Assembly: GCF_003946165.1 (NCBI RefSeq)
Contig: NZ_RHOI01000036.1
Coordinates: 2,212-26,211 of the forward strand
Reading direction: 5' to 3'
From: Lacticaseibacillus baoqingensis
Lineage (GTDB): Bacteria; Bacillota; Bacilli; Lactobacillales; Lactobacillaceae
Length of the DNA: 24,000 nucleotides
Positions 6,596-23,508 of the stretch are shown in pieces. The notes under the pieces were generated by a model, which did not search any database, was not told where the DNA came from, and was given only the letters and a program-made list of their open reading frames with translations. The position numbers were made by a program, and so were the translations under genes. Numbering within the stretch: the stretch's first letter is position 1; each line of letters starts with the position of its first letter.

Positions 6596-6601
6596 ATGCG
6601 A

Positions 6602-7138
6602 TCAACTAAAGTTGCCTGGCGTCAATATCTCCCCAGGCACACGGTATACCTTCGACCCGCGGTCACCGGCAAACCCTACCGGCACGATCGCCTCTGCGTC
6701 AAACTGTCCGCCGGCAAGCGCCGCGTCGTCGACTAGCCGCTCGGTAATGTGCGCGGTAAAGTTCACGTAACCTTGGTAGACTTGCGTGGCGTCGATTTTC
6801 AACAACAGTGCGGCAAACGCCGCTGTCAGCACGGGTAACCCATTGATCTTGTCATGGGCAAAACGCGGATCAGTCAACTTGGCGGTTCCTGGATGGCTGC
6901 CGGCAAACTCGACCATATCCAAATGCGTCCGATCCAAAAAATTGATCGTTCCTTGCCGATAGGTTAATAGCTGCATCGCCGCATTCGTGTCACTGCTGAG
7001 CCCAAAACAATACATCCCGCCTAAGCTATACCCAGAGCTGCAAGTCGTAACATTATAGCCGAAGCGTTCATCTTGATAGCCGATAATAAAGATCGGATAG
7101 TTAAAATACATGTGCCTAGTTGGATAAGAAACAAGCAT
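6602..7138 (-). CDS. Hypothetical protein (178 aa), family not recognised
   Basis: ORF with AAGGGGG RBS 6 nt before the ATG at 7138, 19 nt downstream of the DUF488 gene stop. No motif I can name. Confidence 0.6.
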   Translation of the reverse strand: MLVSYPTRHMYFNYPIFIIGYQDERFGYNVTTCSSGYSLGGMYCFGLSSDTNAAMQLLTYRQGTINFLDRTHLDMVEFAGSHPGTAKLTDPRFAHDKINGLPVLTAAFAALLLKIDATQVYQGYVNFTAHITERLVDDAALAGGQFDAEAIVPVGFAGDRGSKVYRVPGEILTPGNFS

Positions 7139-7157
7139 AATGGGCCCCCTTGTGTGG

Positions 7158-7517
7158 TCACTGCGCTAAGCGTTCACTCAGATAGTCGCTTAACACGACG
7201 GCGTTGTTGTGTTGGGTATCTTTAGCCCCATATAATAATAAAACCCGTTTTTCGTCGCTGGCCTTAAGCTTGGCCACTAACGCTTCAACAGCTGGATTCG
7301 CATCCAATTCGGCGCGATAACGCTGGGTAAATTCACTAAATTTTTCCGGATCATGGCCAAACCACTTACGCAACTCCGTACTTGGCGCGACGGTTTTATC
7401 CCAAGCGTCTAACGCGGCTTTTTCCTTGCTCACACCGCGCGGCCAGACGCGATCGATCAAGACACGCAAGCCTGCTGGCGCATCATGTGCATAGATCCTT
7501 ACTGGTAATAATTCCAT
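7158..7517 (-). CDS. DUF488 (YeaO-like) family protein
   Basis: MELLPVRIYAHDAPAGLRVLIDRVWPRGVSKEKAALDAWDKTVAPSTELRKWFGHDPEKF matches the DUF488 signature (DRxWPRG, APSxxLRxWFxH). The internal ATG at 7517 has a GAGGTG RBS. The upstream extension to 7643 lacks support. Confidence 0.85.
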   Translation of the reverse strand: MELLPVRIYAHDAPAGLRVLIDRVWPRGVSKEKAALDAWDKTVAPSTELRKWFGHDPEKFSEFTQRYRAELDANPAVEALVAKLKASDEKRVLLLYGAKDTQHNNAVVLSDYLSERLAQ

Positions 7518-7536
7518 TCCGATCACCTCTGCCTTG

Positions 7537-7565
7537 ATTAAAGCAGGCCTAAGCGGCGCCGTCAA
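7537..7565 (-). promoter_or_regulatory. Candidate promoter of the DUF488 operon
   Basis: Minus strand: TTGACG, 17 nt spacer, TTTAAT, about 20 nt upstream of the RBS. Confidence 0.4.
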
Positions 7566-7690
7566 ATTATCCACCTGTGTATAACTATCGAAAATACTGT
7601 GAGCTGTCCACATGTGGATAAAGGCTAACGTTTCACCCAGCATTCACGTATAATAGAGTGACTAACAGCCAATCTCAAGGGAGGCCTCTC

Positions 7691-9679: not shown

Positions 9680-9690
9680 CGGGTGGCAGT

Positions 9691-9726
9691 AAAAAAAGCC
9701 GGGTGCGCACGCACTCGGCTTTTTTG
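9691..9726. terminator. Bidirectional terminator between the PBP and GGDEF genes
   Basis: AAAAAAAGCCGGGTGCG..CGCACTCGGCTTTTTT. Confidence 0.75.
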
Positions 9727-9730
9727 CTGT

Positions 9731-10843
9731 TCAATTACCGGCAACAACTTGATCACGCCCGCCGCGCTTAGCCGCATACAGATTCGCATCCGCACGAGCG
9801 ATCGTGATGTCATTGCGCTTGTCGCCAGCCATCACCTTCGTGATCCCAGCAGAAACGGTCAGGTGCAATTTAACTCCTGCCGTCGCGATGGTCAATTGCC
9901 GCAAATGCGCCACATAGCCATCCACGATCGCGCGCACTTGTTGATCAGTGGCCCCGCCAGCGATCAACAAGCTGAATTCTTCGCCGCCAGTGCGATACAG
10001 CGTACATGGAAACGCCGACTGATCAAGGTAAGTCTCCAGATCACTGGCAAACGCCTTGAGCACATCGTTGCCTGCCAAATGCCCATAAGTATCATTGATC
10101 CGCTTGAAGTGATCGATATCCAGCATCACCAAATGCACCGCCGGCATATTCCCATCTAAGCTCAATTGATGATACCGCCCAAAGTCGCTGGTGAATTTGC
10201 TCAAACTATGGACGCCAGTCAAGGCATCATGTTGATTATCGTACTCCAAGGTACTGGTTTTTTGTTGGCGATAAACCAACAAATAATCATACATATGCGC
10301 CAGCACGATCACAACGACAAAACAAACCCAAACTGCCAGCGTCTCGCCTAAAGGATAATGAAACGCATACATATCAAACAACCAATAAACCAAGCTGATC
10401 ACGCTTAAAACAAGGCCATGCCGCAGCCAGTTGGCTTTGATCCAATCTTGATACCAGTTGATCGGCAACAACAGCACCAAGATCAATACCTGCCATGCCA
10501 TCGCCCAGTAATTCCACTGCCAAAACGGCCATAAGGAGACAAAAAAGCCGACCAGCAGCCAGGCGAAAGCACGCCGATCCTGCAACCGTTTGGACACATA
10601 GATCAACGCGCCATTACGGATCGCATTGGCGGTCCAGGTGAATGTCGTGCCGAATAAGCGCAGCATACGCACAAACATGATGACAGCGAGCACATAAATC
10701 ACCACCGCCGCAGCCGCAGAGATCCGCCGGTGCAGCCAGCGCTGGACCAACTCCGGTCCGAGGTCTTCAACGATTTCCAGTGACGCCACGAAACCGATCA
10801 TAAAAAAGAAAGTCCAAAAAAATGTATTGCCAACTAATGCCAT
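9731..10843 (-). CDS. Membrane-bound diguanylate cyclase (multi-TM N-terminus plus GGDEF domain, GGEEF active site)
   Basis: 370 aa. The N-terminal ~190 aa is strongly hydrophobic. The C-terminus has DALTGV..., VMLDIDHFKRINDTYGH, RTGGEEF and SAGI. Confidence 0.9.
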   Translation of the reverse strand: MALVGNTFFWTFFFMIGFVASLEIVEDLGPELVQRWLHRRISAAAAVVIYVLAVIMFVRMLRLFGTTFTWTANAIRNGALIYVSKRLQDRRAFAWLLVGFFVSLWPFWQWNYWAMAWQVLILVLLLPINWYQDWIKANWLRHGLVLSVISLVYWLFDMYAFHYPLGETLAVWVCFVVVIVLAHMYDYLLVYRQQKTSTLEYDNQHDALTGVHSLSKFTSDFGRYHQLSLDGNMPAVHLVMLDIDHFKRINDTYGHLAGNDVLKAFASDLETYLDQSAFPCTLYRTGGEEFSLLIAGGATDQQVRAIVDGYVAHLRQLTIATAGVKLHLTVSAGITKVMAGDKRNDITIARADANLYAAKRGGRDQVVAGN

Positions 10844-10911
10844 GATGTTTTCCCCAATAAACTCACGTGTTTACCGTTAAGCATACCGCAACCCCGCACT
10901 GGTTGCCATTG

Positions 10912-10937
10912 AAAAAAGGCTGCCACCATGGCAGCCT
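10912..10937 (-). terminator. Intrinsic terminator 2 inside the GGDEF leader
   Basis: Minus strand: AGGCTGCCA-TGG-TGGCAGCCT followed by TTTTTT, about 70 nt upstream of the GGDEF ATG. Confidence 0.65.
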
Positions 10938-11030
10938 CTTCACGGAATAGATCGCCGCCGAAGCGGCACGATTTACACACACGTTGATCAGCTCGTTGAC
11001 GGTTCGGGGGAAAGATCAACAGAGCCTTGG

Positions 11031-11083
11031 AAAAGAACAAAACGACCCGCCGCAACAGGCCGAAGCCTCTGCGCACGGGTCGT
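11031..11083 (-). terminator. Intrinsic terminator 1 inside the GGDEF leader / end of a candidate sRNA
   Basis: Minus strand: ACGACCCG..GAGGC-TTCG-GCCT..CGGGTCGT followed by TTTGTTCTTTT. Confidence 0.6.
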
Positions 11084-11154
11084 CTCAAGCGTACCATCGA
11101 AATGGTCTGTACTTGAGTGAGCGGTCAAATTCACTTGTTCTAAATCCAAAAACT

Positions 11155-11183
11155 ATTTTACGGCTTGACGTGTCTTGACGCAA
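11155..11183 (-). promoter_or_regulatory. Candidate promoter driving the structured leader/sRNA
   Basis: Minus strand: TTGCGT (11183-11178), 17 nt spacer, TAAAAT (11160-11155). Confidence 0.45.
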
Positions 11184-11204
11184 CCCTAAAATGATTATTT
11201 TAAT

Positions 11205-11227
11205 AAAAAACCGCCTTTACAGGCGGT
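11205..11227 (-). terminator. Terminator of the WxL gene
   Basis: Minus strand: ACCGCCT-GTAA-AGGCGGT followed by TTTTTT. Confidence 0.75.
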
Positions 11228-11304
11228 CCGCCAGCTTTCCTTTGTCAGTTGAGCTTCGCGGCGATATAACTTAGCCAATACTTACACTTACTCCCCCACG
11301 CAAC

Positions 11305-11823
11305 TTACGAGGCATCAATGGGCCCGGCAAACAACATCCAGCGTAAGGCCGCATGATATGTTGTGCCTGGCTTGCCAGCTGGAATATACAACGCCACCGT
11401 TTTTAGCGCCGGCGCTGCACCAGCGGCTTTCACGACGACTTGTGCCGTCGGGTGCGCCGCTGTTTCCAGTTGTGCACCTGCTAATGGCTGGTGCGCATCA
11501 TCTGCAATCACACTCGCCTGAACTAACATCGCCCATGGACCATGCGCCGCAGCATCAATGGCTGCTTTGGTGCCATCGATTGGTGCCGTTAATGCCTGTG
11601 CTTGGCTGCCGCCAACGATGCGACCGAAGTCAACATCTGGCAAGGCTTGGATGGCCATCACACTCCCGGAGGCCTCCGTAAACGACACCGACGCCGTGCT
11701 TGCTTGCGTGTCGTCAGCCTCGACGACAACCGGCGCGCACCACGCCACTAGTCCGGCCAAACCCGCTAACAACACGAGTGACCGCACCTGAATAAGCTGT
11801 TTGATCAAAAACGATTCCCCCAA
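11305..11823 (-). CDS. Small secreted WxL-domain cell-surface protein
   Basis: Signal peptide (LVLLAGLAGLVAWCAPVVVEA). LPDVDFG motif and C-terminal YHAALRWMLFAGP, matching the YxxxLxWxLxxxP distal WxL motif. The real start may be the TTG at 11808, which follows a GGGGGA RBS. Confidence 0.7.
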   Translation of the reverse strand: MGESFLIKQLIQVRSLVLLAGLAGLVAWCAPVVVEADDTQASTASVSFTEASGSVMAIQALPDVDFGRIVGGSQAQALTAPIDGTKAAIDAAAHGPWAMLVQASVIADDAHQPLAGAQLETAAHPTAQVVVKAAGAAPALKTVALYIPAGKPGTTYHAALRWMLFAGPIDAS

Positions 11824-12137
11824 ACCGACTGATGATCACACATTTCTGCGTAAGAAGTCTATACTTTTATAGCACAAAACCAGCCGAAAAACCAGAAAAT
11901 TATGATTATATTACATAAAAATGAATCAGAGCGATTTTTCCTGCTTTGCTAAACACCATTGCAATGCGTTTATATACCATAAAAACACCAAATGCCTTGT
12001 ACAAAAGATAACCACGGGATTTTTCACGTCCTCGAGTCGTCTGACAACACTTTTTTGAAGATCTAGGGTATACTGCAAATATGATGGCGTAAACCATTGG
12101 TGTCCACCCACTATCAATTGTTTGGAGGAATGTCGCC

Positions 12138-12608
12138 ATGGACCAATATAAGATCTACTACAATACAATGCCGATCGACGATGACGGGTTGGGTTTCGTT
12201 GTCGGTTTGATCACGGAATTACCCCCTAGCCGCTTACATGTTAAGGGCCGCAGTCGCAATCTGCTGGCTTACATGCCGGTTTTACGCATGGGCCAGCCGG
12301 CTTATCCAGTACTCAATGAAAAACTGCACGTGATCACCCGCAAAGCATGGGAAGCTGCCCCTGATGACGCTGCGTTTTTAGTCACGGATTGGTTTTTACG
12401 CTACCCGATGATCGATTCGCTGACCTATTTTGACACTTATGACCCCTTCCACAACTTGACACCGCACATCTTGCCAGGCGACCGTTGGCGCCGCCCGATC
12501 CAACTTGCCAAGCAACAGCTCCATGATGACCTTGAGCGCTTCACCAAAGGCCAGCCTACTAAGTTGATGCAATTACCGGTAAAACTAGAAGATCTCGGGT
12601 ATTTTTAG
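12138..12608 (+). CDS. Hypothetical protein (156 aa), family not recognised
   Basis: ORF with GGAGGA RBS 8 nt before the ATG. Followed by a strong hairpin. Confidence 0.6.
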   Translation: MDQYKIYYNTMPIDDDGLGFVVGLITELPPSRLHVKGRSRNLLAYMPVLRMGQPAYPVLNEKLHVITRKAWEAAPDDAAFLVTDWFLRYPMIDSLTYFDTYDPFHNLTPHILPGDRWRRPIQLAKQQLHDDLERFTKGQPTKLMQLPVKLEDLGYF

Positions 12609-12641
12609 AGGCTGAGCCCCAAAGCGGTTTTAGCCCATGAT

Positions 12642-12695
12642 AAAAGCGCCTTGAAACCGCGATTCTAACACGAATCGTGGCCCCAAGGCGCTTTT
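12642..12695. terminator. Bidirectional terminator hairpin between convergent genes
   Basis: AAAAGCGCCTTG...(inner CGATTC-TAACAC-GAATCG)...CCAAGGCGCTTTT. Confidence 0.65.
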
Positions 12696-12776
12696 GTCGC
12701 TGGGCGCGGCTTGTTAGGGCGCACCTAGACGATGATGTCCTAGTCACGTTTGTGTTAGCAAGTAATTTGCTGTGCT

Positions 12777-13328
12777 CTATTGATCCACTGTTAGCATCTG
12801 GTCGATCATGACATCATGATCTTCGATTGGCCAAGCCGGCGCAGCATACACCATGATCGGTGCGGCTAACACCACTGTTGGGCCTTGATAGCGCTGCAAG
12901 AAGCGGTCATAATAGCCCCCGCCAAACCCAATGCGGGCATGGGTGTTCAGCGCATACGCGATCCCCGGGACCAACAATAGATCCGGCTGGTCGTTAACTT
13001 TAGCTTCATCATAGGGCGGCTCCGGGATCCCAAACGCACTCGTGATCCGGCCAGCTGCGCCAGGGTCTGGCAAAAATGCCATTTGCCGCTTGGGCAAACA
13101 GCGCGGGATCAAGACTTGCTTTCCCGCAGCCGCGGCAGCGGCGATGATCGGCGCAGTTGGAACTTCAAATGGGCTGCTGATGGTGACTCCGATCGTTTTC
13201 GCATCACGCCAGCTGGGCAACCCCTGCAACTTCGCTAATAAGGTTTCACCGGCCAATTGCGTCTCTTGCGCATGCGCTTTTAGCCGCGCGATCTGTTGCT
13301 GACGAAAAGCTTTTTTCTCTGCACTCAT
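12777..13328 (-). CDS. 5-formyltetrahydrofolate cyclo-ligase
   Basis: 183 aa with the family motif IGFGGGYYDRFL and N-terminal K..R.....RL pattern. AAGGAGG RBS. Confidence 0.85.
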   Translation of the reverse strand: MSAEKKAFRQQQIARLKAHAQETQLAGETLLAKLQGLPSWRDAKTIGVTISSPFEVPTAPIIAAAAAAGKQVLIPRCLPKRQMAFLPDPGAAGRITSAFGIPEPPYDEAKVNDQPDLLLVPGIAYALNTHARIGFGGGYYDRFLQRYQGPTVVLAAPIMVYAAPAWPIEDHDVMIDQMLTVDQ

Positions 13329-13351
13329 GCCAACACACCTCCTTGCGCCTC

Positions 13352-13380
13352 ATTATCTAAGACAGACGGTGCCGCGTCAA
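13352..13380 (-). promoter_or_regulatory. Candidate promoter of the cyclo-ligase gene
   Basis: Minus strand: TTGACG, 17 nt spacer, GATAAT. Confidence 0.45.
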
Positions 13381-13425
13381 TTGTGTTCAGCTATCGAATT
13401 TATGGTTGGGATTGTACCCTTCGTC

Positions 13426-13460
13426 AAAAAACGCCTTGGCAACCTATCGTCGCCAAGACG
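13426..13460 (-). terminator. Terminator closing the nine-gene operon
   Basis: Minus strand: CGTCTTGGC-(11 nt loop)-GCCAAGGCG followed by TTTTTT, 29 nt after the M42 stop codon. Confidence 0.65.
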
Positions 13461-13488
13461 TCTTGCCAGTCTGATTGGAATCACCTGC

Positions 13489-14589
13489 TTATTGATGCGC
13501 TTGGATCCCGATGGCTTGCTTCATCCCATCCAGATGCTGCCAATCGATTTGTTGACAAAATACTGTCAGCAAGCGGATCGTCTGCTCATAATCCGTGCGG
13601 CTGATCAACAGGCGCGGCGAGTGCATGTAACGCGTCGGCAGCGAAGCGGTCATGGCCACGACGCCATCGAGCATTTTATGAATACTGCACGCATCGGTGC
13701 CGCCGTCCGTCATGAAATCATAACGCACGTCCAAGTCATTAGCTTGGGCGATTTGGGTCATCATCGCGATCAAACTCGGATTGCTCAGCGTCAAATGATC
13801 GACCATCGACAACACCAGTCCACCGCCAAGTTTCATCCCGGCTGTATCCAGCGGTGTGTCAGTGGCAGTGGTGACATCTAAGGCCACCGCGACATCTGGC
13901 AAGATCGTGTGCGTGGCCGTGCGCGCCCCGCGAATGCCGACTTCTTCTTGAACCGTCGCAGCAAAATACAGATCGGCATCGGTATGGACCCCTTCAAGGT
14001 TGCGCATGACTTCCAGCATCGTCCCTAAATTGACGCGGTCATCCCAGCCTTTGCCGCATAATAGATCCGGATCATTCATCACCCGAAACTTGGTATTTGG
14101 CGTGACCATATCCCCAATTTGAATGCCAAGATCCAAGATCGCCTGACGATTTTTGACCCCCATATCCAAAAATAGGTCCATCGGTGCGATCACTGTATTT
14201 TTGACTTTTTGAGACAACCCGTGCGGGGCACGGGCGCCGACGATGCCGATGTACTTTTCACCCGTCATCGTGGTGACGGTCAGTTCATGGGCAGGCATCA
14301 CATGCCCCCACCAGCCGCCAACTGGCAGCAACTTGATATAGCCGGCATCTGTGATCTCGCGTACCATGAACCCGACTTCATCCATATGGGCCGAAAACAT
14401 CACCTTCGGGCCATGACCGCTGCCATGCTTGATCATGATGGTCGAGCCAAGGTTGTCATGGATGATCTCATCACATAACGGTGCCCCATACTCAGCGACG
14501 ATGCGACTGACTTCACGCTCACAGCCGCCGATCCCGTCTGCTTCTGAGACCCGGCGTAAGATATTTAAATCGATCTGCTTAAAAGTCAT
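13489..14589 (-). CDS. M42-family metallo-aminopeptidase (FrvX/YsdC/PepA-like), paralog 2
   Basis: 366 aa with FSAHMDEVGFMV and the typical M42 layout. AGGAGG RBS. Confidence 0.9.
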   Translation of the reverse strand: MTFKQIDLNILRRVSEADGIGGCEREVSRIVAEYGAPLCDEIIHDNLGSTIMIKHGSGHGPKVMFSAHMDEVGFMVREITDAGYIKLLPVGGWWGHVMPAHELTVTTMTGEKYIGIVGARAPHGLSQKVKNTVIAPMDLFLDMGVKNRQAILDLGIQIGDMVTPNTKFRVMNDPDLLCGKGWDDRVNLGTMLEVMRNLEGVHTDADLYFAATVQEEVGIRGARTATHTILPDVAVALDVTTATDTPLDTAGMKLGGGLVLSMVDHLTLSNPSLIAMMTQIAQANDLDVRYDFMTDGGTDACSIHKMLDGVVAMTASLPTRYMHSPRLLISRTDYEQTIRLLTVFCQQIDWQHLDGMKQAIGIQAHQ

Positions 14590-14600
14590 CGGCGCGCCTC

Positions 14601-15662
14601 CTAACGGTTCTCGGCTTTAAAGGCCGCGATCTGCTCTGGCGTCAGCTGTTGAATGAAGGCGATCAAGGCTTGCTGGGCGCTTTGGAGGTCGCCTAAGTCC
14701 GCCACTTGCTGGGGAGTATCCATGTTGCGCACCGCGACATTGACGAACAACGTCGGCGTACCGGTGCGCAGCTTATTGATCCATGCGGCATCTGAACCGG
14801 CAAGCGAGTAATAGTACTGATATGGCAGGCCTTGGGCTTCACAAACTTGCTTAAGCGTCTGCAATAATAAGCGGTTAGGCAAAACGGTTTGATCAAAAAA
14901 GTTCAGCAATACGCCGTCTCCTAAGCGCCCGATGCGATCTTGAGCATCTTTTTGAGTATCAAACGCCGCATCGGTATCGACGACGATCCCAAGATCTGGT
15001 TGCACGGCATTGGTCGCCGTTTGTACCCCGCGTAATCCAACCGTTTCTTGCACCGTACACCCGACGTACAAGTCAAAAGGCAAAGCTTCGCCAGCAACTG
15101 CCTTGAGCAGTGCGATCCCCATGAGCGGGGCATAGCGGCCATTGAAGGCTTTGGCGATGACGCGTTGACTGCCTGCATTATGGACCAAGGCCTCGGCAAA
15201 AACGGCGCGATCACCGATTTGCAAGCCGCTTTGTTGCGCTTGTTTGGCCGATGCAAAGCCGCAGTCGATCAACACATCCTGTTTTGCCGTCATCGCGTTG
15301 CCCGCCGTGTCGTGCGCCAACAGCGTCCCCATCACGGTTTGTCCGTTAGCCAAGGTGAAGCGCACCGCCGAACCCAGCAAACTGGCCTTAAGCGGCTCGC
15401 CTAAGGCTAACCCTGCGATCGTCCCGTTGTCATTGAACCGCTTGGCGACAAAGCCCACTTCATCCATGTGTCCTGAAACCATCACACGCGGTGCATTGGG
15501 CGTTTTGGCGCGCTTGATGGCATAAATCGAGCCAAGATTGTCATAAACGAAGTCATCAGCATATGGCGCCAGCTGCTCGCGTAAGTATGCCGATACCCGC
15601 CGTTCATCCCCTGGCGCCCCGTCCAAAGCCATCAACGCTTGCAACACCTGTTCGTCAACCAT
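14601..15662 (-). CDS. M42-family metallo-aminopeptidase, paralog 1
   Basis: VSGHMDEVGFVA motif. The ATG at 15662 follows AAGGAG and avoids overlap with the upstream stop; the listed start at 15683 has no RBS. Confidence 0.9.
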   Translation of the reverse strand: MVDEQVLQALMALDGAPGDERRVSAYLREQLAPYADDFVYDNLGSIYAIKRAKTPNAPRVMVSGHMDEVGFVAKRFNDNGTIAGLALGEPLKASLLGSAVRFTLANGQTVMGTLLAHDTAGNAMTAKQDVLIDCGFASAKQAQQSGLQIGDRAVFAEALVHNAGSQRVIAKAFNGRYAPLMGIALLKAVAGEALPFDLYVGCTVQETVGLRGVQTATNAVQPDLGIVVDTDAAFDTQKDAQDRIGRLGDGVLLNFFDQTVLPNRLLLQTLKQVCEAQGLPYQYYYSLAGSDAAWINKLRTGTPTLFVNVAVRNMDTPQQVADLGDLQSAQQALIAFIQQLTPEQIAAFKAENR

Positions 15663-15679
15663 ACTCCCACTCCTTTTTC

Positions 15680-16198
15680 TCAATAGCAGTTTGCTGCCGC
15701 AAACGCACTGGTATCTTCTTTTTTGACCTTCATCGCCGCTAAGGTCAAGATCTTTTGCAAGGCGTCAGTCAAGCCGATCCCGCCTTTTTTCGGCATTTTG
15801 ACGATCGTCACTTGATTTCGATACTCGCTGATCGCCGCTTCACACTCTTGACTCATCGCTGCCACTGCCGGCAAGCCGTGCGCTTCAAGCGCGGTGGCGA
15901 CGGTGGCGCACAGCATGCCGTATTTTTCATAATTGAACGCCGGCCCACAAATCACGACGTCTGGTGCTAATTTGTGGCACATCGCCACCAGCTTGTTAGT
16001 CACGGTTTGCGGATCTGCCATGAACGTATCATCCCCGCAATAAAGCGTCGCTAACACCGTCGCATCCACTGCCGGCAGAAAATTCGTAAACATGTCCACG
16101 GCGCCGATCGCCAGCTTCTTGCCGCCTAATGGCAGATCCCCGCGCTCCTTGCCGCCGAACCCAGCTTGGATCTGATCAAGAATAAAAATGACTTTCAT
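15680..16198 (-). CDS. Short GrdB-like protein (resembles the N-terminal region of glycine/sarcosine/betaine reductase protein B), function unknown
   Basis: 172 aa. MKVIFILDQIQAGFGGKERGD resembles the GrdB/PrdB N-terminal xxNQFFAGIGGEEKAD pattern as I recall it. No in-frame TGA, so no selenocysteine region. AAGGAGG RBS. Confidence 0.55.
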   Translation of the reverse strand: MKVIFILDQIQAGFGGKERGDLPLGGKKLAIGAVDMFTNFLPAVDATVLATLYCGDDTFMADPQTVTNKLVAMCHKLAPDVVICGPAFNYEKYGMLCATVATALEAHGLPAVAAMSQECEAAISEYRNQVTIVKMPKKGGIGLTDALQKILTLAAMKVKKEDTSAFAAANCY

Positions 16199-16232
16199 CG
16201 CAATTCCTCCTTGGCTTGGCGCCTACATTTGG

Positions 16233-17582
16233 CTAAAGATCATCAAATGAAATGTCGTCAAATGAGATATCATCCGTTTCGTCTTTTTTATCGGTGGCGT
16301 CGGCTTCTTCTTTAAGATAGTTATTGTCCAAGATCTTGATGAATGGGTAATACACCAAGCAGCCTAGGATCAGCAGCAAGATCTGATAGACTGCCGCGAC
16401 CCAGCTTCCGGTCGATAAATAACCGGAAAAGCCGACCGGCGTCGTCCATGGTAAAGCGACCCCATTGGTATACGGAATAATTCCCAGCTTCGTCACCGCC
16501 GTGGAGATCAAGAGGTTCATCAATGGCACCAGGTTGAATGGGATCAAAATGATCGGATTCAACACGATCGGTAACCCAAAGATGATCGGCTCATTGATCC
16601 CAAAGATCCCCGGGATCAATGACAGCTTCCCGAGCTGCTTGATCCGCTGCGACTTGCAAAACAAGATCATCACGATGATCAACGACAGCGTTGAACCGCC
16701 GCCGCCGAAGTTGGTGAAGAAGTTGGAAAATGGATCCGTAAAGATATTTGGCAACGTTTTGCCGGCTTGGAAGGCATCCAAGTTTTCCATGGTCAACACC
16801 TTGGTGATCGGGCCAAAAACGGAATTGGCCACCGCCGGCCCATTGATCCCAAACGACCAAAACAGCGTGCAGGCTAACCCATAGATCACTTGTGCAAACA
16901 AGGTGTTCCCAGCACCTTTAAGCGGCGTCTGCAAGATCTCGAAGATGAAGTTGTGCACGGTCCCAAAACTGGTCATCCCCACAAAGATGCGCACGAAGAA
17001 GAACACGATCATCACTAAGCCGCTAGGAATCAAGGCGGCAAACGAATCCGCCACTGCCGGTGGGACCCCATCAGGCATCTTGATCGTCCAGCCGCGCTTG
17101 GCGGCAAACGCATACAGCTGTACCGCCACTAACGCCACAACTAAACCTAAGAAAATGCCGTTGGTGCCCAAGTATTCCGTGTCCAACCCAACAATGCTAG
17201 TGCCGCCTTTTAATACGAGGTCAGTAGGCGTCAAGATGATGAACGCCACGATCGCCACCCCAGCGGCTTGGATCGCATCCGTATCAAGTTGGCGGCCATA
17301 GGCGTAGGCGGTGCCAAAACACGATAAAAAGCCCACTAAGTTAAACACTGACCGCGACACATTAGCAAACCACGACTGCCATTGAGACCCTAAGATCCCG
17401 TTCCAAAATTCGACCCAATGCGGGATGGGAAAGTTATTGAACAAAAGAAATAACGACGCCACGATGATCAATGGGGTGGTGATCAAGAAGCCATCACGGA
17501 TGGCAATCAGGATCTTGTTTTTCCCCAGCTTTTCAGCCAGCGGCATCAAGGTCTTTTCCAATGCGTGTAACATAGTCTTCAC
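16233..17582 (-). CDS. PTS EIIC, lactose/cellobiose/chitobiose (type 3) family
   Basis: 449 aa polytopic membrane protein with the typical N-terminus MPLAEKLGKNKILIAIRDGF. Unusual acidic tail DETDDISFDDISFDDL. Confidence 0.9.
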   Translation of the reverse strand: MKTMLHALEKTLMPLAEKLGKNKILIAIRDGFLITTPLIIVASLFLLFNNFPIPHWVEFWNGILGSQWQSWFANVSRSVFNLVGFLSCFGTAYAYGRQLDTDAIQAAGVAIVAFIILTPTDLVLKGGTSIVGLDTEYLGTNGIFLGLVVALVAVQLYAFAAKRGWTIKMPDGVPPAVADSFAALIPSGLVMIVFFFVRIFVGMTSFGTVHNFIFEILQTPLKGAGNTLFAQVIYGLACTLFWSFGINGPAVANSVFGPITKVLTMENLDAFQAGKTLPNIFTDPFSNFFTNFGGGGSTLSLIIVMILFCKSQRIKQLGKLSLIPGIFGINEPIIFGLPIVLNPIILIPFNLVPLMNLLISTAVTKLGIIPYTNGVALPWTTPVGFSGYLSTGSWVAAVYQILLLILGCLVYYPFIKILDNNYLKEEADATDKKDETDDISFDDISFDDL

Positions 17583-17600
17583 TCCTCCAAAATGTGGCGG

Positions 17601-17927
17601 TTACTGGGCTTTTTTCTTCAAGGCGAGCAAGGCTTGCTTCAGCACGCGTTCGCCGTTCATGGTGCCATAATCTTGGCTGTCGATCAGGATCACCGGGGTG
17701 CCGTCTTGCCCATATTTTTCAGCCGTTTCGTCATACAAATATTTCACTTGCGGGCCAAGCATGATCACATCCGGATGTTCTTCATCGACAATATTTTGGA
17801 GCAATCCGTGGGGCTTGGCGGCAACCGTCACTGGCATCTTGTGGGCATCTGCTACATCTTGCATCTTTTGGGCCAATAGACTAGTCGACATGCCTTGGCT
17901 GCAAAACAGATAAATTTTCTTACTCAT
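17601..17927 (-). CDS. PTS EIIB, lactose/cellobiose/chitobiose family
   Basis: 108 aa. KKIYLFCSQGMSTSLLAQKM closely parallels E. coli ChbB (IYLFCSAGMSTSLL), including the phospho-Cys. Confidence 0.92.
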   Translation of the reverse strand: MSKKIYLFCSQGMSTSLLAQKMQDVADAHKMPVTVAAKPHGLLQNIVDEEHPDVIMLGPQVKYLYDETAEKYGQDGTPVILIDSQDYGTMNGERVLKQALLALKKKAQ

Positions 17928-17945
17928 GATGATTTCCTCCTTGAT

Positions 17946-18905
17946 CTAATCGATCGGTGCCTTGATCCGACGTTCGTATGCGTCAAGCCATTCTTGGGTG
18001 ATCGGCTCGATGCGGGTTTGGTGGTCTGCTGCCGGATGAGCGATCAAGATCTGCGGGGCAGCATCCGCAGTGGCAACGCTAAAGGTAAATTCTACATTGG
18101 TCGCCACGCCCCACTCACCGCGATTATTCATCGCCACTAAAGAGAATTCGCCGCATTTGCCATAACGCGCCTGCAAGGTTTCTGCAAAACTGTAAACCGC
18201 CTGATCTGCGGCTTCTTGCGGGGTTTTGCCGGCAGCCATTTGGCGAACGATCTCATAGCTCAAACAGCCTTTCATCAAGTCTTCGCCTAAGCCGGTGGCC
18301 GCCGCCCCGCCAACGGCACTATCCACATAAAAACCCGATCCTGACAGCGGCGAATCGCCGACGCGCCCGGCTTTTTTCATAAACAAACCAGAAGTCGACG
18401 TCGCCGTGGCCATCGACCCATTGCCTGCCAACGTCACGGCACCGACGGTATCATGGCCATCATAAGGACTCAGGTCCGACGCGCGCATCGCCGCCAAACG
18501 TTGTTGCCAAAGCTTCTTAGCGCGCGGCGTCAACATGTTCACCATTTCAAAGCCTTGCAGTTGCGCATATTTAGTGGCACCAGCGCCAACACGGAAGCTA
18601 TTGTAGTGCTCATGGCTCAGCGCCCGCGCCACTGAAACGGCGTGCAAAACGTTATGGATCCCAGCGACCGCCCCTTGAGCAAAGGTGTCCCCATCCATGA
18701 ATGCTGCATCCATTTCCACCTCGCCTTCTTCATTCGGCAAGCCGCCATAACCCACTGATTTGTAGTATTCATAGGCTTCTACGCGTTTGATCAACGCTTC
18801 TACCGCATCGCCTGCAGTGCCGCCAGCCGCTAATTGCCGGCTGGCATCCACGACACCGTCATGTGCCATACGCCAAGTGGCGATCGTCCCCCACATTGTC
18901 ATCAC
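17946..18905 (-). CDS. Ntn-hydrolase glycosylasparaginase (N4-(beta-N-acetylglucosaminyl)-L-asparaginase)-type enzyme
   Basis: GHDTVGAV autoprocessing site, GRVGDSPLSGSGFYVD and AAATGLGEDLMK resemble aspartylglucosaminidase more than the EcAIII-type isoaspartyl peptidase. The start may be the ATG at 18902 (TGATG overlap with the upstream stop) rather than the GTG at 18905. Confidence 0.8.
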   Translation of the reverse strand: MMTMWGTIATWRMAHDGVVDASRQLAAGGTAGDAVEALIKRVEAYEYYKSVGYGGLPNEEGEVEMDAAFMDGDTFAQGAVAGIHNVLHAVSVARALSHEHYNSFRVGAGATKYAQLQGFEMVNMLTPRAKKLWQQRLAAMRASDLSPYDGHDTVGAVTLAGNGSMATATSTSGLFMKKAGRVGDSPLSGSGFYVDSAVGGAAATGLGEDLMKGCLSYEIVRQMAAGKTPQEAADQAVYSFAETLQARYGKCGEFSLVAMNNRGEWGVATNVEFTFSVATADAAPQILIAHPAADHQTRIEPITQEWLDAYERRIKAPID

Positions 18906-20218
18906 CCTTTCGTCAATGCCAACATGCTTTGCATATAGATCTGCATGTTTTTGGCGAGGTCATCTTCTGTCATCCATTCATCTTGTTTATGCGCGATCCC
19001 TTTTTGTCCGGGAAATGACGGCCCAAACGCGAGGATATTGGGCATCACCCGCGCATAAGTGGCGCCGGTAGTGGTCACAGGCGTTGGGTTTAAGCCGGTC
19101 ACCGCCCCATATACCGCCGACAACGTTTGGATCTCCGGGCGGGTTTGATCATGCATCACGCCTGGCAGCCGCCGCAGTACCTGCAGTTGGGTTTGCGGCG
19201 GCAGGCTTGATTGCAAACGCGCTGTCACCGTGGCTTCGCTGACGGATACCGGATAGCGGATCGCCAACCCCAAGCGCAAGCCGGCAGCCGTTTTGCTCAA
19301 GCGATATGGCGTCATGATCAAGGCCCCAGAATCAGCATCTTCAAGCGCCAAGTCCAGGCCTTGGCCGTGATGTTGATCCGCCAGATGCGTGACGATCCAA
19401 GCAAAATACGCTTGCAGCGCTTCAGGGCCCAGTTTGGCCGCCACGATCTGCTTGGCCAACTCAGTCAACGCATTCACGCCTAATTCCGGGGCGTTGGTCG
19501 GCGCGCGCTTGCCAATGGCCTTGAACACCTGTCCTGCCAACGTGGTGCTGAGTTGATCCGGCACATGATCTTTGGCCTGTTCGCCGACGATCGGCCCTAA
19601 GGCGGCAGCAGCTGGCAAAGTCGTGTCTAACGCATAGTTGACGATCCCGCGTTCGCCATACACCACCGGATATTTGCCATCTGGGGTGAACCCAAACTGC
19701 GGTGGCGCCTCATGTTCAAGATATAATGGCACATCGGCACAGCCGCTTTCTTCATCAGAACCAAAGATCAGCCGAATCGTTTTGGCGGGTTGAAACCCCA
19801 TGTTGCACAACAGCTTCATCCCATAAAGACACGCCATGATCGGCCCTTTATTATCCAAAACCCCGCGGCCGTACAGCGTGCCATTGTGCCGGGTCAATTC
19901 AAAAGGCGGCGTGTGCCAACCAGATCCGGCGGCAACGACATCCAAATGCCCCACGATGCCAAGATAATCGGTATCATCATCACCCCATTGCACATACGCC
20001 ATGGCGTCATTGACGATGCCGGTTTTGAACCCATAGGCTTGACCCATTTGCGCCACTAGCGCCAACGCTTGCTTGGGCCCTGATCCAAATGGCGCCGCAT
20101 CAGCAGCAGCCCCGCGCACACTTTCCACTTGGATCATCTCAGCCAAATCAGCGATGAACGCTTCCCAATGCAAAGCGACCACTGGTTTGATGCGACTGTC
20201 CATCCTAAGCATAAGCAC
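18902..20218 (-). CDS. pepV: M20-family dipeptidase, PepV/Sapep-like
   Basis: 438 aa with GHLDVVAAGSGWHTPPF, LYGRGVLDNKGP and FGSDEESG metal and active-site motifs. Confidence 0.85.
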   Translation of the reverse strand: MLMLRMDSRIKPVVALHWEAFIADLAEMIQVESVRGAAADAAPFGSGPKQALALVAQMGQAYGFKTGIVNDAMAYVQWGDDDTDYLGIVGHLDVVAAGSGWHTPPFELTRHNGTLYGRGVLDNKGPIMACLYGMKLLCNMGFQPAKTIRLIFGSDEESGCADVPLYLEHEAPPQFGFTPDGKYPVVYGERGIVNYALDTTLPAAAALGPIVGEQAKDHVPDQLSTTLAGQVFKAIGKRAPTNAPELGVNALTELAKQIVAAKLGPEALQAYFAWIVTHLADQHHGQGLDLALEDADSGALIMTPYRLSKTAAGLRLGLAIRYPVSVSEATVTARLQSSLPPQTQLQVLRRLPGVMHDQTRPEIQTLSAVYGAVTGLNPTPVTTTGATYARVMPNILAFGPSFPGQKGIAHKQDEWMTEDDLAKNMQIYMQSMLALTKG

Positions 20219-20228
20219 TCCCTTCTCG

Positions 20229-20954
20229 TCACGGCCGCCGCATCAGCGTCGACTTGAACGAATACTTATCACTGCGATAATACGATTGGTCATACAAAAT
20301 CGGCTTGCCATCACTGGTAAATGTCACCGTATGCGACACGAGCAGCGGCGCGTTGCGCTTTTGATCCAATAATGCCGCCAAGCGCTCATCTGCCGCAGTC
20401 GCTTCGATTTCTTGATGCGCATAAGCGATATCCACTTGCTGCTCTAAGATTGCAAACAACGAGCCTTCAAAGTCTTTGGCCTGCTTGCCGGCGACATACT
20501 CGTGGCACAACACCACCTCTTCGATCGTCATCGGATCATCATCCCAAAAACGCCGCCGGACCAGCCGGTCATACTGACCATTGGGCCGTCCAGGCGTGGC
20601 CAGCTTAGCTAAGATCGCCGGGCTTGGGGTGATCAGCGGCTCATAGGCTAAAACCTCTGTGTGGCTGGTTTTGCCATAGCTTTGCGCGACTTCCGTGAAC
20701 CCTTGCAAGCCATTTTGCCCACTGGCGATCTTGTCTTGGCTTTGCTCAACCACATAGGTCCCATAGCCCGGTTTTTTGACCAGCAGGTGTTGATTGATCA
20801 ACACGCCGATCGCCTTGCGGATGGTCATGCGCGTGACCCCAAATTCTTCTGCCAAAGTATATTCAGATGGCAGCCGCTGGGCCGGGACATAGTAGCCTTC
20901 TTGGATCCGTTGTTGGATCGTTTTGACCACCGTTGCATATTTTGGTTCACTCAT
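20229..20954 (-). CDS. GntR-family regulator, HutC subfamily (wHTH plus UTRA effector domain)
   Basis: 241 aa. N-terminal LPSEYTLAEEFGVTRMTIRKAI wHTH, with a length and C-terminus typical of UTRA. The ATG overlaps the asdA stop by 8 nt. Confidence 0.9.
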   Translation of the reverse strand: MSEPKYATVVKTIQQRIQEGYYVPAQRLPSEYTLAEEFGVTRMTIRKAIGVLINQHLLVKKPGYGTYVVEQSQDKIASGQNGLQGFTEVAQSYGKTSHTEVLAYEPLITPSPAILAKLATPGRPNGQYDRLVRRRFWDDDPMTIEEVVLCHEYVAGKQAKDFEGSLFAILEQQVDIAYAHQEIEATAADERLAALLDQKRNAPLLVSHTVTFTSDGKPILYDQSYYRSDKYSFKSTLMRRP

Positions 20955-22536
20955 TTGATTGCCCCCTTTTGTTGGCCCATGTCACTTGCAGATCATCCAT
21001 CCAATGGATCAAGCGCGCCCCAATTTGCGCATATTGGCGCGTGGCCAAGTTAGCCAAAGAGATCCGCACCGCCCATGGATGGCTGCCAAAATCACGCGTT
21101 TGCAAGAGCATCACATTCTCATCTGCCGCCAGCTGCACCAATAGCTGCCGCGGCGAATAGCGTGTTTTGACAAATGCGGCAAATGCCTGGCCATAGCGTG
21201 CCTGGATCCAGGCCATTAGATCCAGCTCGCAATAATATGCCGTATCATGACGCGTCTCAGGCAGCGGCAGCCCTAACGTAGCAAACAGCTGTTTTTCGCG
21301 AGTGCGGCAAATCGCCATCACCTCGGCTTGATACGCCGCGCCATCGACCAAGCAGCCATACAGCGAAAACAAGGCGATCATCACTTGCTGCACCGCCGAC
21401 AAGCCAGCCGCATGGTTGAGCGCGATATCGCGCGAATCGGCGACTAAGCGATCGATAAACGGCAACGGCGCATCACTGGTCACCGCGGCATACCGTGCCG
21501 CGACCGTCGCCGCTTGCGCCGGCGGGAGCCGTTGCAACAAGCGGTCAAACACATTGTCTTGTGCCATGGCGATTGCCCCAACGCGCCACCCGGTTGCGCC
21601 AAAGTACTTCGAAAACGAGTACAGACACACCGTATTGCGCGGCAATACCGCAAACAACGACTGAAACCCGCTGGCAAACGTCCCGTAAACGTCATCGGTC
21701 AAGATCATCAAGTCTGGCCGCGCTTCATTAACGATCGTTTGGATCTGCCGGATATTGGCGGCACCTAAGGCGTTGGCCGTGGGGTTGCTGGGATTGACCA
21801 CGAACACGGCGGTGACCAAAGGATCGCGCAGCTTATCCAATTCAACCGCTGGATAATGATACGTGGTGCGCCCGGCTGCCCGAGTTTGCGTCGATCGGAT
21901 CGCCACCACATCAAAATGGTATTGCGGCAGCTTGGTGATCTCTAGATATGGCGCAAAGGTCGGCAACAACAAAGCGATACGCGCCCCGGGCTCAAGCAAA
22001 TGCGTGTTGATTAGCGTGTCAAACAAATAACAGATCCCTGCCGTCCCCCCTTCAACCGGAAAAACATCAAAGGCAGGTGCTGCTTGTCCAAACAAATTTT
22101 GTTGTAAATAAGCCTTCAACGGGTGCTCACAAACTGGTAAACACCGCGCCGGCGCCGGATAATTGTCGCCAATGATCGCATCACACGCCGCATCCAGCCA
22201 AGCGGCCGCTGGCATCCCTAAGTCAGTTGCCGACAACGCCAAGAGCTGCTCCAAAAACGTTGACCCAGCCCCTGGGCGCGTTTGCAAAAAAGCCAAAAAG
22301 CGCGCCAAGCGATCGGCTGCCGGCATGACCATCGTACCGGTCAAGCCCCCTTGTTGGGTTTCTTGAGTAGCAAATTCACCTAAGAGAAAAAACGCCTCAC
22401 GCGGTACCGGTGCCGTCCAGTTAGGATTGCCGCGACCGGCGTCTAAGACCTGCTGGCGCTTGGGGTCAACGACGTGTTTTTGGAGATATAAGCTGAGTTC
22501 GAACGGGCTGAGTGCTTCTAGCTGTGCGTCTTGCAT
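20947..22536 (-). CDS. asdA: Aspartate 4-decarboxylase (bifunctional aspartate aminotransferase/beta-decarboxylase)
   Basis: 529 aa. LSPFEL, DAGRGNPNW, VNPSNP, DLMILTDDVYGTF, YSFSKYFGATGWR and FIDRLVADSR..ALNH all match the AsdA/AspD family as I recall it. Confidence 0.9.
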   Translation of the reverse strand: MQDAQLEALSPFELSLYLQKHVVDPKRQQVLDAGRGNPNWTAPVPREAFFLLGEFATQETQQGGLTGTMVMPAADRLARFLAFLQTRPGAGSTFLEQLLALSATDLGMPAAAWLDAACDAIIGDNYPAPARCLPVCEHPLKAYLQQNLFGQAAPAFDVFPVEGGTAGICYLFDTLINTHLLEPGARIALLLPTFAPYLEITKLPQYHFDVVAIRSTQTRAAGRTTYHYPAVELDKLRDPLVTAVFVVNPSNPTANALGAANIRQIQTIVNEARPDLMILTDDVYGTFASGFQSLFAVLPRNTVCLYSFSKYFGATGWRVGAIAMAQDNVFDRLLQRLPPAQAATVAARYAAVTSDAPLPFIDRLVADSRDIALNHAAGLSAVQQVMIALFSLYGCLVDGAAYQAEVMAICRTREKQLFATLGLPLPETRHDTAYYCELDLMAWIQARYGQAFAAFVKTRYSPRQLLVQLAADENVMLLQTRDFGSHPWAVRISLANLATRQYAQIGARLIHWMDDLQVTWANKRGQSNE

Positions 22537-22564
22537 GATCGGCCTCCGAATTTAGTGTTTACTA

Positions 22565-22580
22565 TATGGTATATACTATA
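22565..22580. promoter_or_regulatory. Candidate GntR/HutC operator
   Basis: TATGGTATATACTATA has a perfect 8 bp palindrome core GTATATAC (the GT-N-TA-N-AC pattern typical of HutC/NagR/DasR-type sites). It overlaps the predicted -10 of the operon promoter. Confidence 0.55.
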
Positions 22581-22602
22581 TCGGCGGGCAGACTTTTAGC
22601 AA
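22575..22602 (-). promoter_or_regulatory. Candidate promoter of the asdA-to-M42 operon
   Basis: Minus strand: TTGCTA (22602-22597), 16 nt spacer, TATAGT (22580-22575). GGAGG RBS before the ATG at 22536. Confidence 0.5.
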
Positions 22603-22682
22603 GCGTTTTCATCATTTTCTCACTTGCTCTGTTTGCCAACTTATAAGAGAATAATTCTAACGTTTTTATTGGAGGGGATAGG

Positions 22683-23438
22683 ATGGTGATCATTGCCGCG
22701 GCCAATGCCGTGATCGGTGCTTTGGTCGGGATGACTGGCGTGGCCGGGTTCTTGCTGCCGATGTTATACGCCGGCTTTTTAGGGTACACACCGACAACCG
22801 CTTTAGCATTCAGCTTTTTGGCCTTCATTGTTTCAGGGCTGCTTGGTGCCCGCAATTATGCGCGCGCCGGACTATTAGACCGGCGCTTGGCGGGCATTGT
22901 CAGCATTGGCTCGCTAGTTGGGGCGTTGGCAGGGGTGAAGCTCAACTTGTTATTATCGCCTGACCTAGTCACCGCGATCTTATACTTAGTCGTTTTGGCT
23001 TCAGGCGCGGCGATCTTGATCCAACAAGCGCGTTTGCGCCCTGTCGACCATCCCCAAAGCCCCTTACTGACTCACTCAGGATTCTTATTCGGTTTTGGTT
23101 TGCTCACCGGGGCGCTATGTGCGTTATCCGGAGCCGGCGGACCCGTCTTGGTCATGCCATTGTTAGTGGTTTTAGGCTGTGCGCCACACGTCGCTGTCGG
23201 CGTCGCCTTGTTGAATTCAGTGGCTATTTCCGTGCCCGCTGCGATCGGTTACTTCACCCAGATCCATTGGCAAGCTTACCTGCCGCTGTTGGCGATCATT
23301 ATCGTCACGCACGGACTAGGCGTATGGTGGGGCAGCACCGTTGGCCCTAAGATCAATGCGAATGTCCTAAAAATCGGTACCGCCAGCTTTTCTGTTGTGT
23401 TAGCGTTGTTCAAACTGATCAGCACTTGGGTCCATTGA
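22683..23438 (+). CDS. TauE/SafE-family sulfite/organosulfonate exporter-like permease
   Basis: 251 aa, Gly/Leu-rich polytopic protein with internal duplication typical of TauE/SafE. GGAGGGG RBS. Confidence 0.8.
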   Translation: MVIIAAANAVIGALVGMTGVAGFLLPMLYAGFLGYTPTTALAFSFLAFIVSGLLGARNYARAGLLDRRLAGIVSIGSLVGALAGVKLNLLLSPDLVTAILYLVVLASGAAILIQQARLRPVDHPQSPLLTHSGFLFGFGLLTGALCALSGAGGPVLVMPLLVVLGCAPHVAVGVALLNSVAISVPAAIGYFTQIHWQAYLPLLAIIIVTHGLGVWWGSTVGPKINANVLKIGTASFSVVLALFKLISTWVH

Positions 23439-23462: not shown

Positions 23463-23508
23463 AATAGCGCGACCATCGAGCGACTTTTCGCTCAATGATC
23501 GCGCTATT
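23463..23508 (+). terminator. Hairpin after the TauE-family gene (possible terminator)
   Basis: AATAGCGCGA..GAGCGA-CTTT-TCGCTC..TCGCGCTATT. No clear U-run follows. Confidence 0.4.

Follow-up and report, generated by a model that had tools for sequence, protein, structure and literature searches.

Described systems for glycosyl-asparagine catabolism

The alf-2 cluster of Lacticaseibacillus casei/paracasei BL23 is a system for 6'-fucosyl-N-acetylglucosaminyl-asparagine (6'FN-Asn), where glycosylasparaginase activity has been demonstrated for AsnA2 and aspartate 4-decarboxylase activity for AsdA (Becerra et al., mBio 2020, PMC6960285). For N-acetylglucosaminyl-asparagine (GlcNAc-Asn), a route through a phosphotransferase system (PTS) has been published for ega, the enterococcal glycosylasparaginase locus of Enterococcus faecalis (Combret et al., Res Microbiol 2024;175:104169, as described in papers citing it). 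Here, a 24,000-nucleotide stretch of Lacticaseibacillus baoqingensis (contig NZ_RHOI01000036.1, positions 2,212 to 26,211; the window) was analysed, in which a nine-gene operon on the minus strand (13489-22536) combines the amino-acid genes of alf-2 with PTS genes in the order seen in ega and with two M42-family peptidase genes. The operon is read as a system for PTS-dependent catabolism of GlcNAc-β-Asn, or of short peptides bearing GlcNAc-β-Asn, with a probability of roughly 0.78. The PTS route itself is already published for a homologous locus, and the operon is an extended variant rather than a new pathway.

According to a preprint citing Combret et al., a GntR regulator (OG1RF_10933) and a dipeptidase (10934) share one promoter in E. 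faecalis OG1RF. OG1RF_10935-10939, under another promoter, encode the asparaginase EgaG, enzyme IIB (EIIB) and enzyme IIC (EIIC) of the lactose/cellobiose (lac/cel) family, and an oxidoreductase pseudogene related to glycine reductase protein B. A later paper from the same group describes a 'GlcNAc-L-Asn PTS' and shows that it uses the enzyme IIA (EIIA) CelA1, encoded in the cellobiose locus. Transport, the asparaginase requirement and the supply of EIIA in trans are reported for the E. faecalis homologues and may, by analogy, hold for the window.

The window shares with ega the order GntR regulator, M20 dipeptidase, glycosylasparaginase, lac/cel EIIB, EIIC and GrdB-like gene. Both loci lack an EIIA, with no PTS_IIA found in the window, and the enterococcal loci of ega architecture carry the same operator motif upstream. 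The window differs in having asdA at its head and two M42 genes at its tail, in retaining an intact GrdB-like gene where OG1RF has a pseudogene, and in an EIIC of another clade that is ~50–53% identical to the EIICs of ega architecture. Whereas E. faecalis has two transcription units and the ega-type enterococcal loci carry operators at two places, the window has one promoter/operator, overlapping pepV and asparaginase genes, and neither an operator nor a usable promoter before the asparaginase gene.

With alf-2 the window shares the order asdA-alfR2-pepV-asnA2, with 57–76% identity to the L. rhamnosus orthologues; in alf-2, too, the regulator is a GntR-family repressor. This likeness had been proposed in a first-pass annotation of the DNA, made from the sequence alone, and agrees with both PMC6960285 and the L. 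rhamnosus locus (L001 in the survey below), which is arranged alfC-alfH / gntR-pepV-asnA2-sugK. Where alf-2 has AlfC, AlfH and SugK, the window has EIIB, EIIC, the GrdB-like gene and two M42 genes. The absence of these three partners was also stated in that annotation and is borne out, as scans of the window with Pfam and NCBIfam found no AlfC fucosidase, AlfH major facilitator superfamily permease or SugK ROK kinase, and no EIIA. Its statement on novelty does not stand. It knew of no described uptake of Asn-linked glycan cores through a PTS, which is out of date given Combret et al., as cited by others. PTS genes beside asnA2 were also already drawn in Fig. 7 of PMC6960285, the legend of which includes them in a figure of alf-2-type clusters that takes in L. 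manihotivorans, L. gasseri, L. johnsonii, L. curvatus and L. sakei.

The L. sakei LSA1689-LSA1693 genes and the clusters termed type A below, from Lactobacillus, Pediococcus and Lacticaseibacillus, likewise hold an asparaginase, a GntR_LSA1692-type regulator, a GrdB-like protein, a cel-type EIIC and PepV. Unlike the window they have no EIIB or M42 genes, carry asdA in some cases only, and place the GrdB-like gene before the EIIC gene. Identity to the window is 53–59% for the EIICs and 38–46% for the GrdB-like proteins.

Gene content and boundaries of the operon

Gene families were assigned by Pfam, NCBIfam and PDB sequence searches, and for all nine proteins Pfam and NCBIfam agree with the families first proposed. 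All nine open reading frames (ORFs) of the operon are intact and co-directional, joined by overlaps or short gaps as first described; recomputed from asdA to the last gene, the junctions are -8, +10, -4, +18, +18, +34, -4 and +11 nt. ORF lengths agree with those of the homologues in L085, a contig derived from the Sequence Read Archive (SRA), for all nine genes; hence none of them is a pseudogene. Two start codons affect these figures. The first M42 gene (M42a) likely begins at the ATG of codon 8, which is preceded by an AAGGAG ribosome-binding site, and its -4 overlap with the GrdB-like gene then becomes a gap of ~17 nt. Database entries for the asparaginase begin at codon 2 or codon 4.

A Rho-independent terminator follows the last gene (13428..13464, minus strand), with a 16-bp stem, a 5-nt loop and a U run. 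RNA folding of the surrounding 86 nt (13405-13490, minus strand) gave -33.1 kcal/mol with z = -4.3, and 0 of 200 shuffled sequences folded equally well, making this single terminator stronger than initially described. The claim that there are no internal hairpin terminators also stands. A scan of the window found no terminator-like matches in the intergenic gaps of the operon, and the intragenic matches are weak, with stems of 5–7 bp. Rfam returned no RNA leader or riboswitch across 13000-23000. A candidate internal promoter for the asparaginase gene (18922-18895) was rejected, as transcription would start past all plausible start codons and no operator accompanies it. Recent horizontal transfer was likewise considered and dismissed, with the GC content of the operon (0.50–0.57) near that of its flanks.

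AsdA, PepV and the glycosylasparaginase

The asdA gene (20947..22536, minus strand) encodes an aspartate 4-decarboxylase of 529 aa, scoring 662 bits against the TIGR03801 equivalog (cutoff 435) and sharing 61–63% identity with the leading gene in each of L003, L008, L012, L013 and L085. The PepV-like M20 dipeptidase (438 aa; 18902..20218, minus strand) belongs to the TIGR01887 Sapep subfamily at 386 bits. It matches PepV 1LFW (5e-45) and Sapep 3KHX (1.4e-44) in the PDB and shares 57% identity with the orthologue in the alf-2 locus of L. rhamnosus.

The predicted glycosylasparaginase of AsnA2/EgaG type (17946..18905, minus strand; 316–319 aa depending on the start codon) is an N-terminal nucleophile (Ntn) hydrolase of PF01112. 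Whether this enzyme belongs with glycosylasparaginases or with the EcAIII/IaaA isoaspartyl peptidases had been posed as a check on the locus. Its best PDB relatives are the chains of Elizabethkingia glycosylasparaginase (4e-49), with the E. coli isoaspartyl peptidase EcAIII at 2e-25, and it reaches 103 bits against the beta-aspartyl-peptidase equivalog NF007589, for which the cutoff is 567. The HDT153 autoprocessing site aligns with those of the PDB glycosylasparaginases, and the site is invariant in an alignment of 7 close orthologues together with W11, T171, R181, D184, T204 and G205. The enzyme shares 76% identity with the L. rhamnosus orthologue of alf-2 AsnA2, itself a very common protein. 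By homology, the Ntn hydrolase of the window is of glycosylasparaginase type and not of isoaspartyl-peptidase type.

The PTS proteins

The EIIB (108 aa; 17601..17927, minus strand) is a PF02302 protein of the lactose/cellobiose/chitobiose family. It matches E. coli ChbB 1H9C at 2e-18, and the phosphorylated Cys aligns within IYLFCS. The EIIC (449 aa; 16233..17582, minus strand) belongs to PF02378 and the TIGR00410 subfamily (398.7 bits) and matches B. cereus ChbC 3QNQ at 1.5e-94. Its scores fall under both relevant equivalog cutoffs, with 398.7 against 434.45 for cellobiose (TIGR00359) and 199 against 760 for chitobiose (NF007634).

In a neighbour-joining tree, asparaginase-linked EIICs form three clades, apart from other cel-type EIICs of the same loci. 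Type A EIICs occur in lactobacilli and pediococci, with the GrdB-like gene preceding that of EIIC and no EIIB. Type B EIICs are enterococcal and show the ega architecture, EIIB-EIIC-GrdB-like. The window belongs to type C, where EIIB (usually), EIIC and the GrdB-like protein are followed by two M42 genes; in three type C loci no EIIB was detected beside the cluster. Besides the window, type C includes seven Enterococcus/Vagococcus species, whose EIICs are 70–76% identical to that of the window, and two SRA-derived contigs. A type C EIIC with a GrdB-like gene and two M42 genes is also found in genomes of Clostridia and Erysipelotrichaceae.

Distribution among related loci

To place the operon among its relatives, one genome per species was scanned with an alignment of asparaginase orthologues, giving 80 loci, whose genes were identified by BLAST with the proteins of the window and with AlfC, AlfH and SugK of L. 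rhamnosus. A lac/cel EIIC adjoins the asparaginase in 55 of the 80 species loci and AlfC/AlfH occur in 7, while 18 have neither and none has both. The comparison of neighbourhoods thus shows the PTS and AlfH/AlfC/SugK versions to be mutually exclusive, as had been asked of it.

One other assembly, L085, holds all nine genes in identical order, at 56–80% identity, and because of it the nine-gene combination is conserved, though rare. Conservation in a relative, which the first-pass annotation had named as decisive for its proposal, was thereby found.

The type C cluster of Crassaminicella profunda (L083) is accompanied by nagA, nagB, two EIIA genes, M20, asparaginase, ptsI and ptsH. Its genes are co-directional over 5672-20522, beginning with nagA, nagB, IIA, IIB, IIC, GrdB-like, M20, M42 and M42 and continuing with IIA, Asparaginase_2, IIB, CutC, a PRD/Mga-type regulator, ptsI and ptsH. 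The regulator is of another type, and the locus has no GTATATAC operator (described below). Since this cluster adds nagA, nagB, EIIA, ptsI and ptsH, it points to GlcNAc-6-phosphate (GlcNAc-6-P) as the probable end product of such systems.

The GrdB-like protein

Between the EIIC and M42 genes lies a gene for a GrdB-related protein without selenocysteine (172 aa; 15680..16198, minus strand), which scores 235.6 bits against the 'GrdB_like_no_Se' equivalog NF041545 (cutoff 175). Its match to the 347-position Pfam GRDB profile is confined to positions 2-163, and its scores against GrdB equivalogs are far under the cutoffs. Hence it is not a full-length (~430 aa) selenoprotein B with the selenocysteine-containing C-terminal half. 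An AlphaFold2 model has an alpha/beta fold at a pLDDT of 97, and no significant neighbours were found in the PDB. The family is small, as a profile search of 1.84 billion representatives gave 36 members at E <= 1e-30, among which no informative fusions of the domain were seen.

In the related loci the GrdB-like gene always adjoins the EIIC gene, and it is present in 41 of the 55 PTS-bearing loci. No GrdB-like ORF was detectable after EIIC in 12 enterococcal loci of ega architecture (L028-L030, L034, L036, L039-L041, L048, L049, L055 and L072). Together with the OG1RF pseudogene, these loci suggest that the gene has been lost repeatedly in enterococci.

The M42 pair

The operon ends with two genes of the PF05343 family that differ in their predicted activity. 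For the M42 active site the numbering of PhTET2 is followed, with H68, D182, E212, E213, D235 and H323, which we take to be the five metal ligands and the catalytic Glu. M42b (366 aa; 13489..14589, minus strand) is a canonical TET-type aminopeptidase at 285 bits, and matches B. subtilis YsdC 1VHE in the PDB (2.4e-82). It has H, D, E, E, D and H at these positions, keeping all six, and the six residues are intact in all 14 homologous M42b-type proteins examined.

M42a (353–360 aa; 14601..15683, minus strand, likely starting at the ATG at 15662) is a degenerate paralogue, 28.5% identical to M42b, with PepA 3KL9 as its closest PDB relative (1.4e-51). Its residues at the six positions are H, N, E, T, D and D, so that three of the five metal ligands are gone, the equivalents of D182, E213 and H323 being N, T and D. 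Of 12 M42a orthologues, 11 have lost the residues equivalent to E213 and H323. Similar ligand losses are found in Enterococcus, Vagococcus and a Clostridia genome, while the Erysipelotrichaceae orthologue retains the full ligand set. Because its metal ligands are lost, M42a is probably non-catalytic, lacking the two-metal site despite its PF05343 family signature. Of the three peptidases initially proposed for the operon, the M20 and M42b enzymes stand and M42a probably does not, which leaves two active enzymes and one degenerate paralogue.

The M42 pair is present in 11 of 11 type C loci seen and in none of types A and B. The ligand losses in the first member, set against a second member that is always intact, suggest that a pseudo-enzyme and an active enzyme are conserved as partners. 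Catalytic M42b and non-catalytic M42a could possibly form one TET-like particle.

PTS operons carrying M42 aminopeptidases are known from E. coli in frvABXR, sgc and ypdDEFGH. Like the window, these encode a sugar PTS together with an M42 peptidase and sometimes further peptidases; unlike it, they belong to other PTS families and have no asparaginase or GrdB-like gene. A second cluster resembling the ypd operon was observed in three enterococci, ~2 kb 5' of the ega-type locus in L038 (72-5981), and also in L050 and L053, with its PTS genes 6–7 kb 5'. It consists of the EIIA_2 end of a regulator, cel-type IIA, IIB and IIC, an M24 Xaa-Pro-type peptidase, an intact M42 peptidase and a class I/II aminotransferase.

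Promoter, operator and regulator

A predicted sigma-70-type promoter precedes asdA (22575..22602, minus strand), with a -35 box TTGCTA (22602-22597), a 16-nt spacer and a -10 box TATAGT (22580-22575); it has 9 of 12 consensus matches. Its placement relative to an operator and a cre-like site is found in orthologous loci as well. The predicted GntR/HutC operator AGTATATACC, with the palindromic core GTATATAC, lies at 22568..22577 (minus strand) and overlaps the -10 box. AGTATATACY has one exact match in the whole window, at this position. The upstream promoter/operator first reported for the operon is present.

In related loci totalling 1.66 Mb, 147 copies of the core GTATATAC were found, nearly all of them directly 5' of either the asparaginase gene or the gene that opens the cluster. 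Enterococcal sites are often paired, with two copies 14 bp apart, and the presence of operators at two places in enterococci fits the two promoters reported for E. faecalis. Conversely, pepV and the asparaginase gene abut in the window, which indicates a single regulated promoter for the operon. The sole other near-match to the operator in the window, AGTCTATACT (11856-11865), has one mismatch and falls where no gene family is assigned, adjoining the Pfam-less ORFs 11305-11823 and 12138-12608; it may be a chance occurrence.

A catabolite-responsive element (cre)-like sequence, TGAAAACGCTTGCT (22598..22611, minus strand), overlaps the -35 box and has one mismatch to WGWAARCGYTTWCW. A GAAANCGYTTGCA element is found at equal distance 5' of the operator in the promoters of L003, L006, L007, L021 and L024. 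This arrangement suggests that the cre-like sequence may be a CcpA site, adding catabolite control to the GntR repressor. In L. sakei, the homologues LSA1690, LSA1692 and LSA1693 are modestly higher on ribose than on glucose.

The regulator itself (241 aa; 20229..20954, minus strand) is a GntR/HutC-family repressor of AlfR2/EgaR type with Pfam GntR and UTRA domains. It scores 319.5 bits against the GntR_LSA1692 equivalog NF041547 (cutoff 275) and shares 57% identity with its counterpart in the L. rhamnosus alf-2 locus. A GlcNAc-6P-like effector had been proposed for it. Because alf-2 is induced only by 6'FN-Asn (PMC6960285), the effector is more likely, by analogy, to be the glycoamino acid than GlcNAc-6-P.

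Proposed pathway

Under the proposed function, EIIC and EIIB, with an EIIA encoded elsewhere in the genome, would take up the substrate and phosphorylate its sugar at C6. The intracellular glycosylasparaginase would then cleave 6-P-GlcNAc-Asn to aspartate and 6-P-GlcNAc-1-amine, and the latter would decay to GlcNAc-6-P and ammonia, with GlcNAc-6-P entering glycolysis through NagA and NagB. AsdA would convert the aspartate to alanine and CO2. PepV and an M42 assembly, probably of catalytic M42b with degenerate M42a, would free glycosylated Asn from peptides. The GntR/HutC repressor would sit on AGTATATACC over the -10 box until released by the glycoamino acid, and the cre-like site over the -35 box would add glucose repression. 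Import of GlcNAc-Asn by a lac/cel PTS, as the first-pass annotation had proposed, is backed by the published genetics on the homologous ega locus, as reported in citing papers.

Alternative explanations

The PTS could be an ordinary cellobiose or chitobiose transporter that happens to lie beside an unrelated amino-acid and peptide catabolic cluster. The solved structures closest to EIIC and EIIB are ChbC and ChbB, and the top NCBIfam match of EIIC is the cellobiose model, although EIIC scores under both equivalog cutoffs. The operon also has no phospho-beta-glucosidase or any other glycoside hydrolase by Pfam and NCBIfam, and one promoter/operator and overlapping genes bind its two halves together. 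Moreover, asparaginase-linked EIICs form clades of their own, the linkage recurs in 55 of 80 species, and the homologous E. faecalis PTS is described as a GlcNAc-L-Asn PTS. An ordinary sugar transporter is thus improbable. Less probable still is the alternative raised with the initial proposal, that the substrates are beta-aspartyl (isoaspartyl) peptides, cleaved by the Ntn hydrolase as an isoaspartyl peptidase and broken down further by the M20 and M42 enzymes. Pfam Asparaginase_2 does take in isoaspartyl peptidases, and some sources label the homologues 'isoaspartyl peptidase/L-asparaginase-like'. However, the bit score far under the NF007589 cutoff, the PDB E-values and the 76% identity to the orthologue of a biochemically demonstrated glycosylasparaginase speak against it, and the scheme leaves the sugar PTS without a place. 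Amadori compounds such as fructose-asparagine were also considered as the substrate and set aside, the operon having neither a deglycase (SIS-domain) gene nor a kinase gene.

A further alternative refines PTS-dependent GlcNAc-Asn catabolism and does not contradict it. The type C EIIC may import GlcNAc-Asn oligopeptides or a longer glycan-Asn such as chitobiosyl-Asn, with the M42 assembly essential for intracellular release. This is consistent with the separation of type C EIICs from those of ega architecture, with the restriction of the M42 pair to type C loci, and with the presence of M24 and M42 peptidases in other cel-type PTS operons. On the other side, we know of no PTS that carries peptides, the co-regulated peptidases could process ordinary peptides released with the glycoamino acid, and M42a has lost metal ligands. 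The proposal is therefore tentative, and rated as distinctly less probable than not. A more specific version is slightly more doubtful again. In this, the type C PTS would be a glycopeptide PTS, a heteromeric, self-compartmentalised M42a/M42b particle would trim the phospho-glycopeptide to 6-P-GlcNAc-Asn, and the GrdB-like protein would serve this transporter or the pathway as a new accessory factor. Such a PTS, if real, would be the first one demonstrated to transport a sugar linked to a peptide, and the M42 genes of PTS operons such as frv, sgc and ypd, long without an explanation, would gain a possible role.

Several points weigh against PTS-dependent catabolism of GlcNAc-Asn as the function of the operon. 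Its experimental support comes from homologous systems, in other organisms and EIIC clades than that of the window, and the link to ega is made through descriptions in citing papers and through ~29 enterococcal and Vagococcus loci of the same architecture; E. faecalis itself was not among the best 120 matches to the E. caccae asparaginase. As the EIIC of the window is only ~50–53% identical to those of its sister clade with ega architecture, its substrate could differ. No alignment column separates PTS-linked from AlfH-linked asparaginases, and hence no signature for a phosphorylated substrate was found among them. This absence would fit an asparaginase that tolerates O6 substituents, as L. 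casei AsnA2 tolerates fucose on O6 (PMC6960285). According to the same paper, L. casei PepV is dispensable for growth on 6'FN-Asn, and PepV may be accessory. The same may apply to the GrdB-like protein, as its gene is a pseudogene in OG1RF (per the preprint citing Combret et al.) and so is not essential there for GlcNAc-Asn use. Finally, L084 from Erysipelotrichaceae encodes a PRD regulator, an RDD protein, IIC, IIB, a GrdB-like protein and two M42 proteins (5154-12841) with no asparaginase nearby, showing that the PTS/GrdB-like/M42 module can occur without the asparaginase.

Surroundings of the operon

The operon is flanked by housekeeping genes, namely nrdI/F/E and genes for a penicillin-binding protein (PBP), a GGDEF protein, 5-formyltetrahydrofolate (5-FTHF) cyclo-ligase and TauE. 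In the rest of the window, nrdI-nrdF is divergent from nrdE, and an AraC regulator, a DUF488 protein and a PBP2-type transpeptidase are encoded. Three ORFs of 156–178 aa have no Pfam match (6602-7138, 11305-11823 and 12138-12608). A very strong hairpin with a 20-bp perfect stem (23463-23508) lies just 3' of the TauE-family gene (22683-23438, plus strand) and is probably the terminator of that gene or a bidirectional terminator.

Biological significance

GlcNAc-Asn is the final remnant of every N-glycoprotein after the action of endoglycosidases and proteases, and bacteria able to use it gain both carbon and nitrogen from host or food glycoproteins. The ega locus is described by papers citing Combret et al. 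as important during E. faecalis infection. The window adds a fuller version of the pathway in Lacticaseibacillus, with AsdA for aspartate disposal and a peptidase module. What is new here is a single-operator combination of asdA with a type C PTS, a GrdB-like gene and an M42 pair of one degenerate and one catalytic member. Two conserved components stand out in it, the GrdB-like protein and the M42 pair. The conserved operator and the three EIIC clades provide practical annotation markers for such loci across Lactobacillales and Clostridia.

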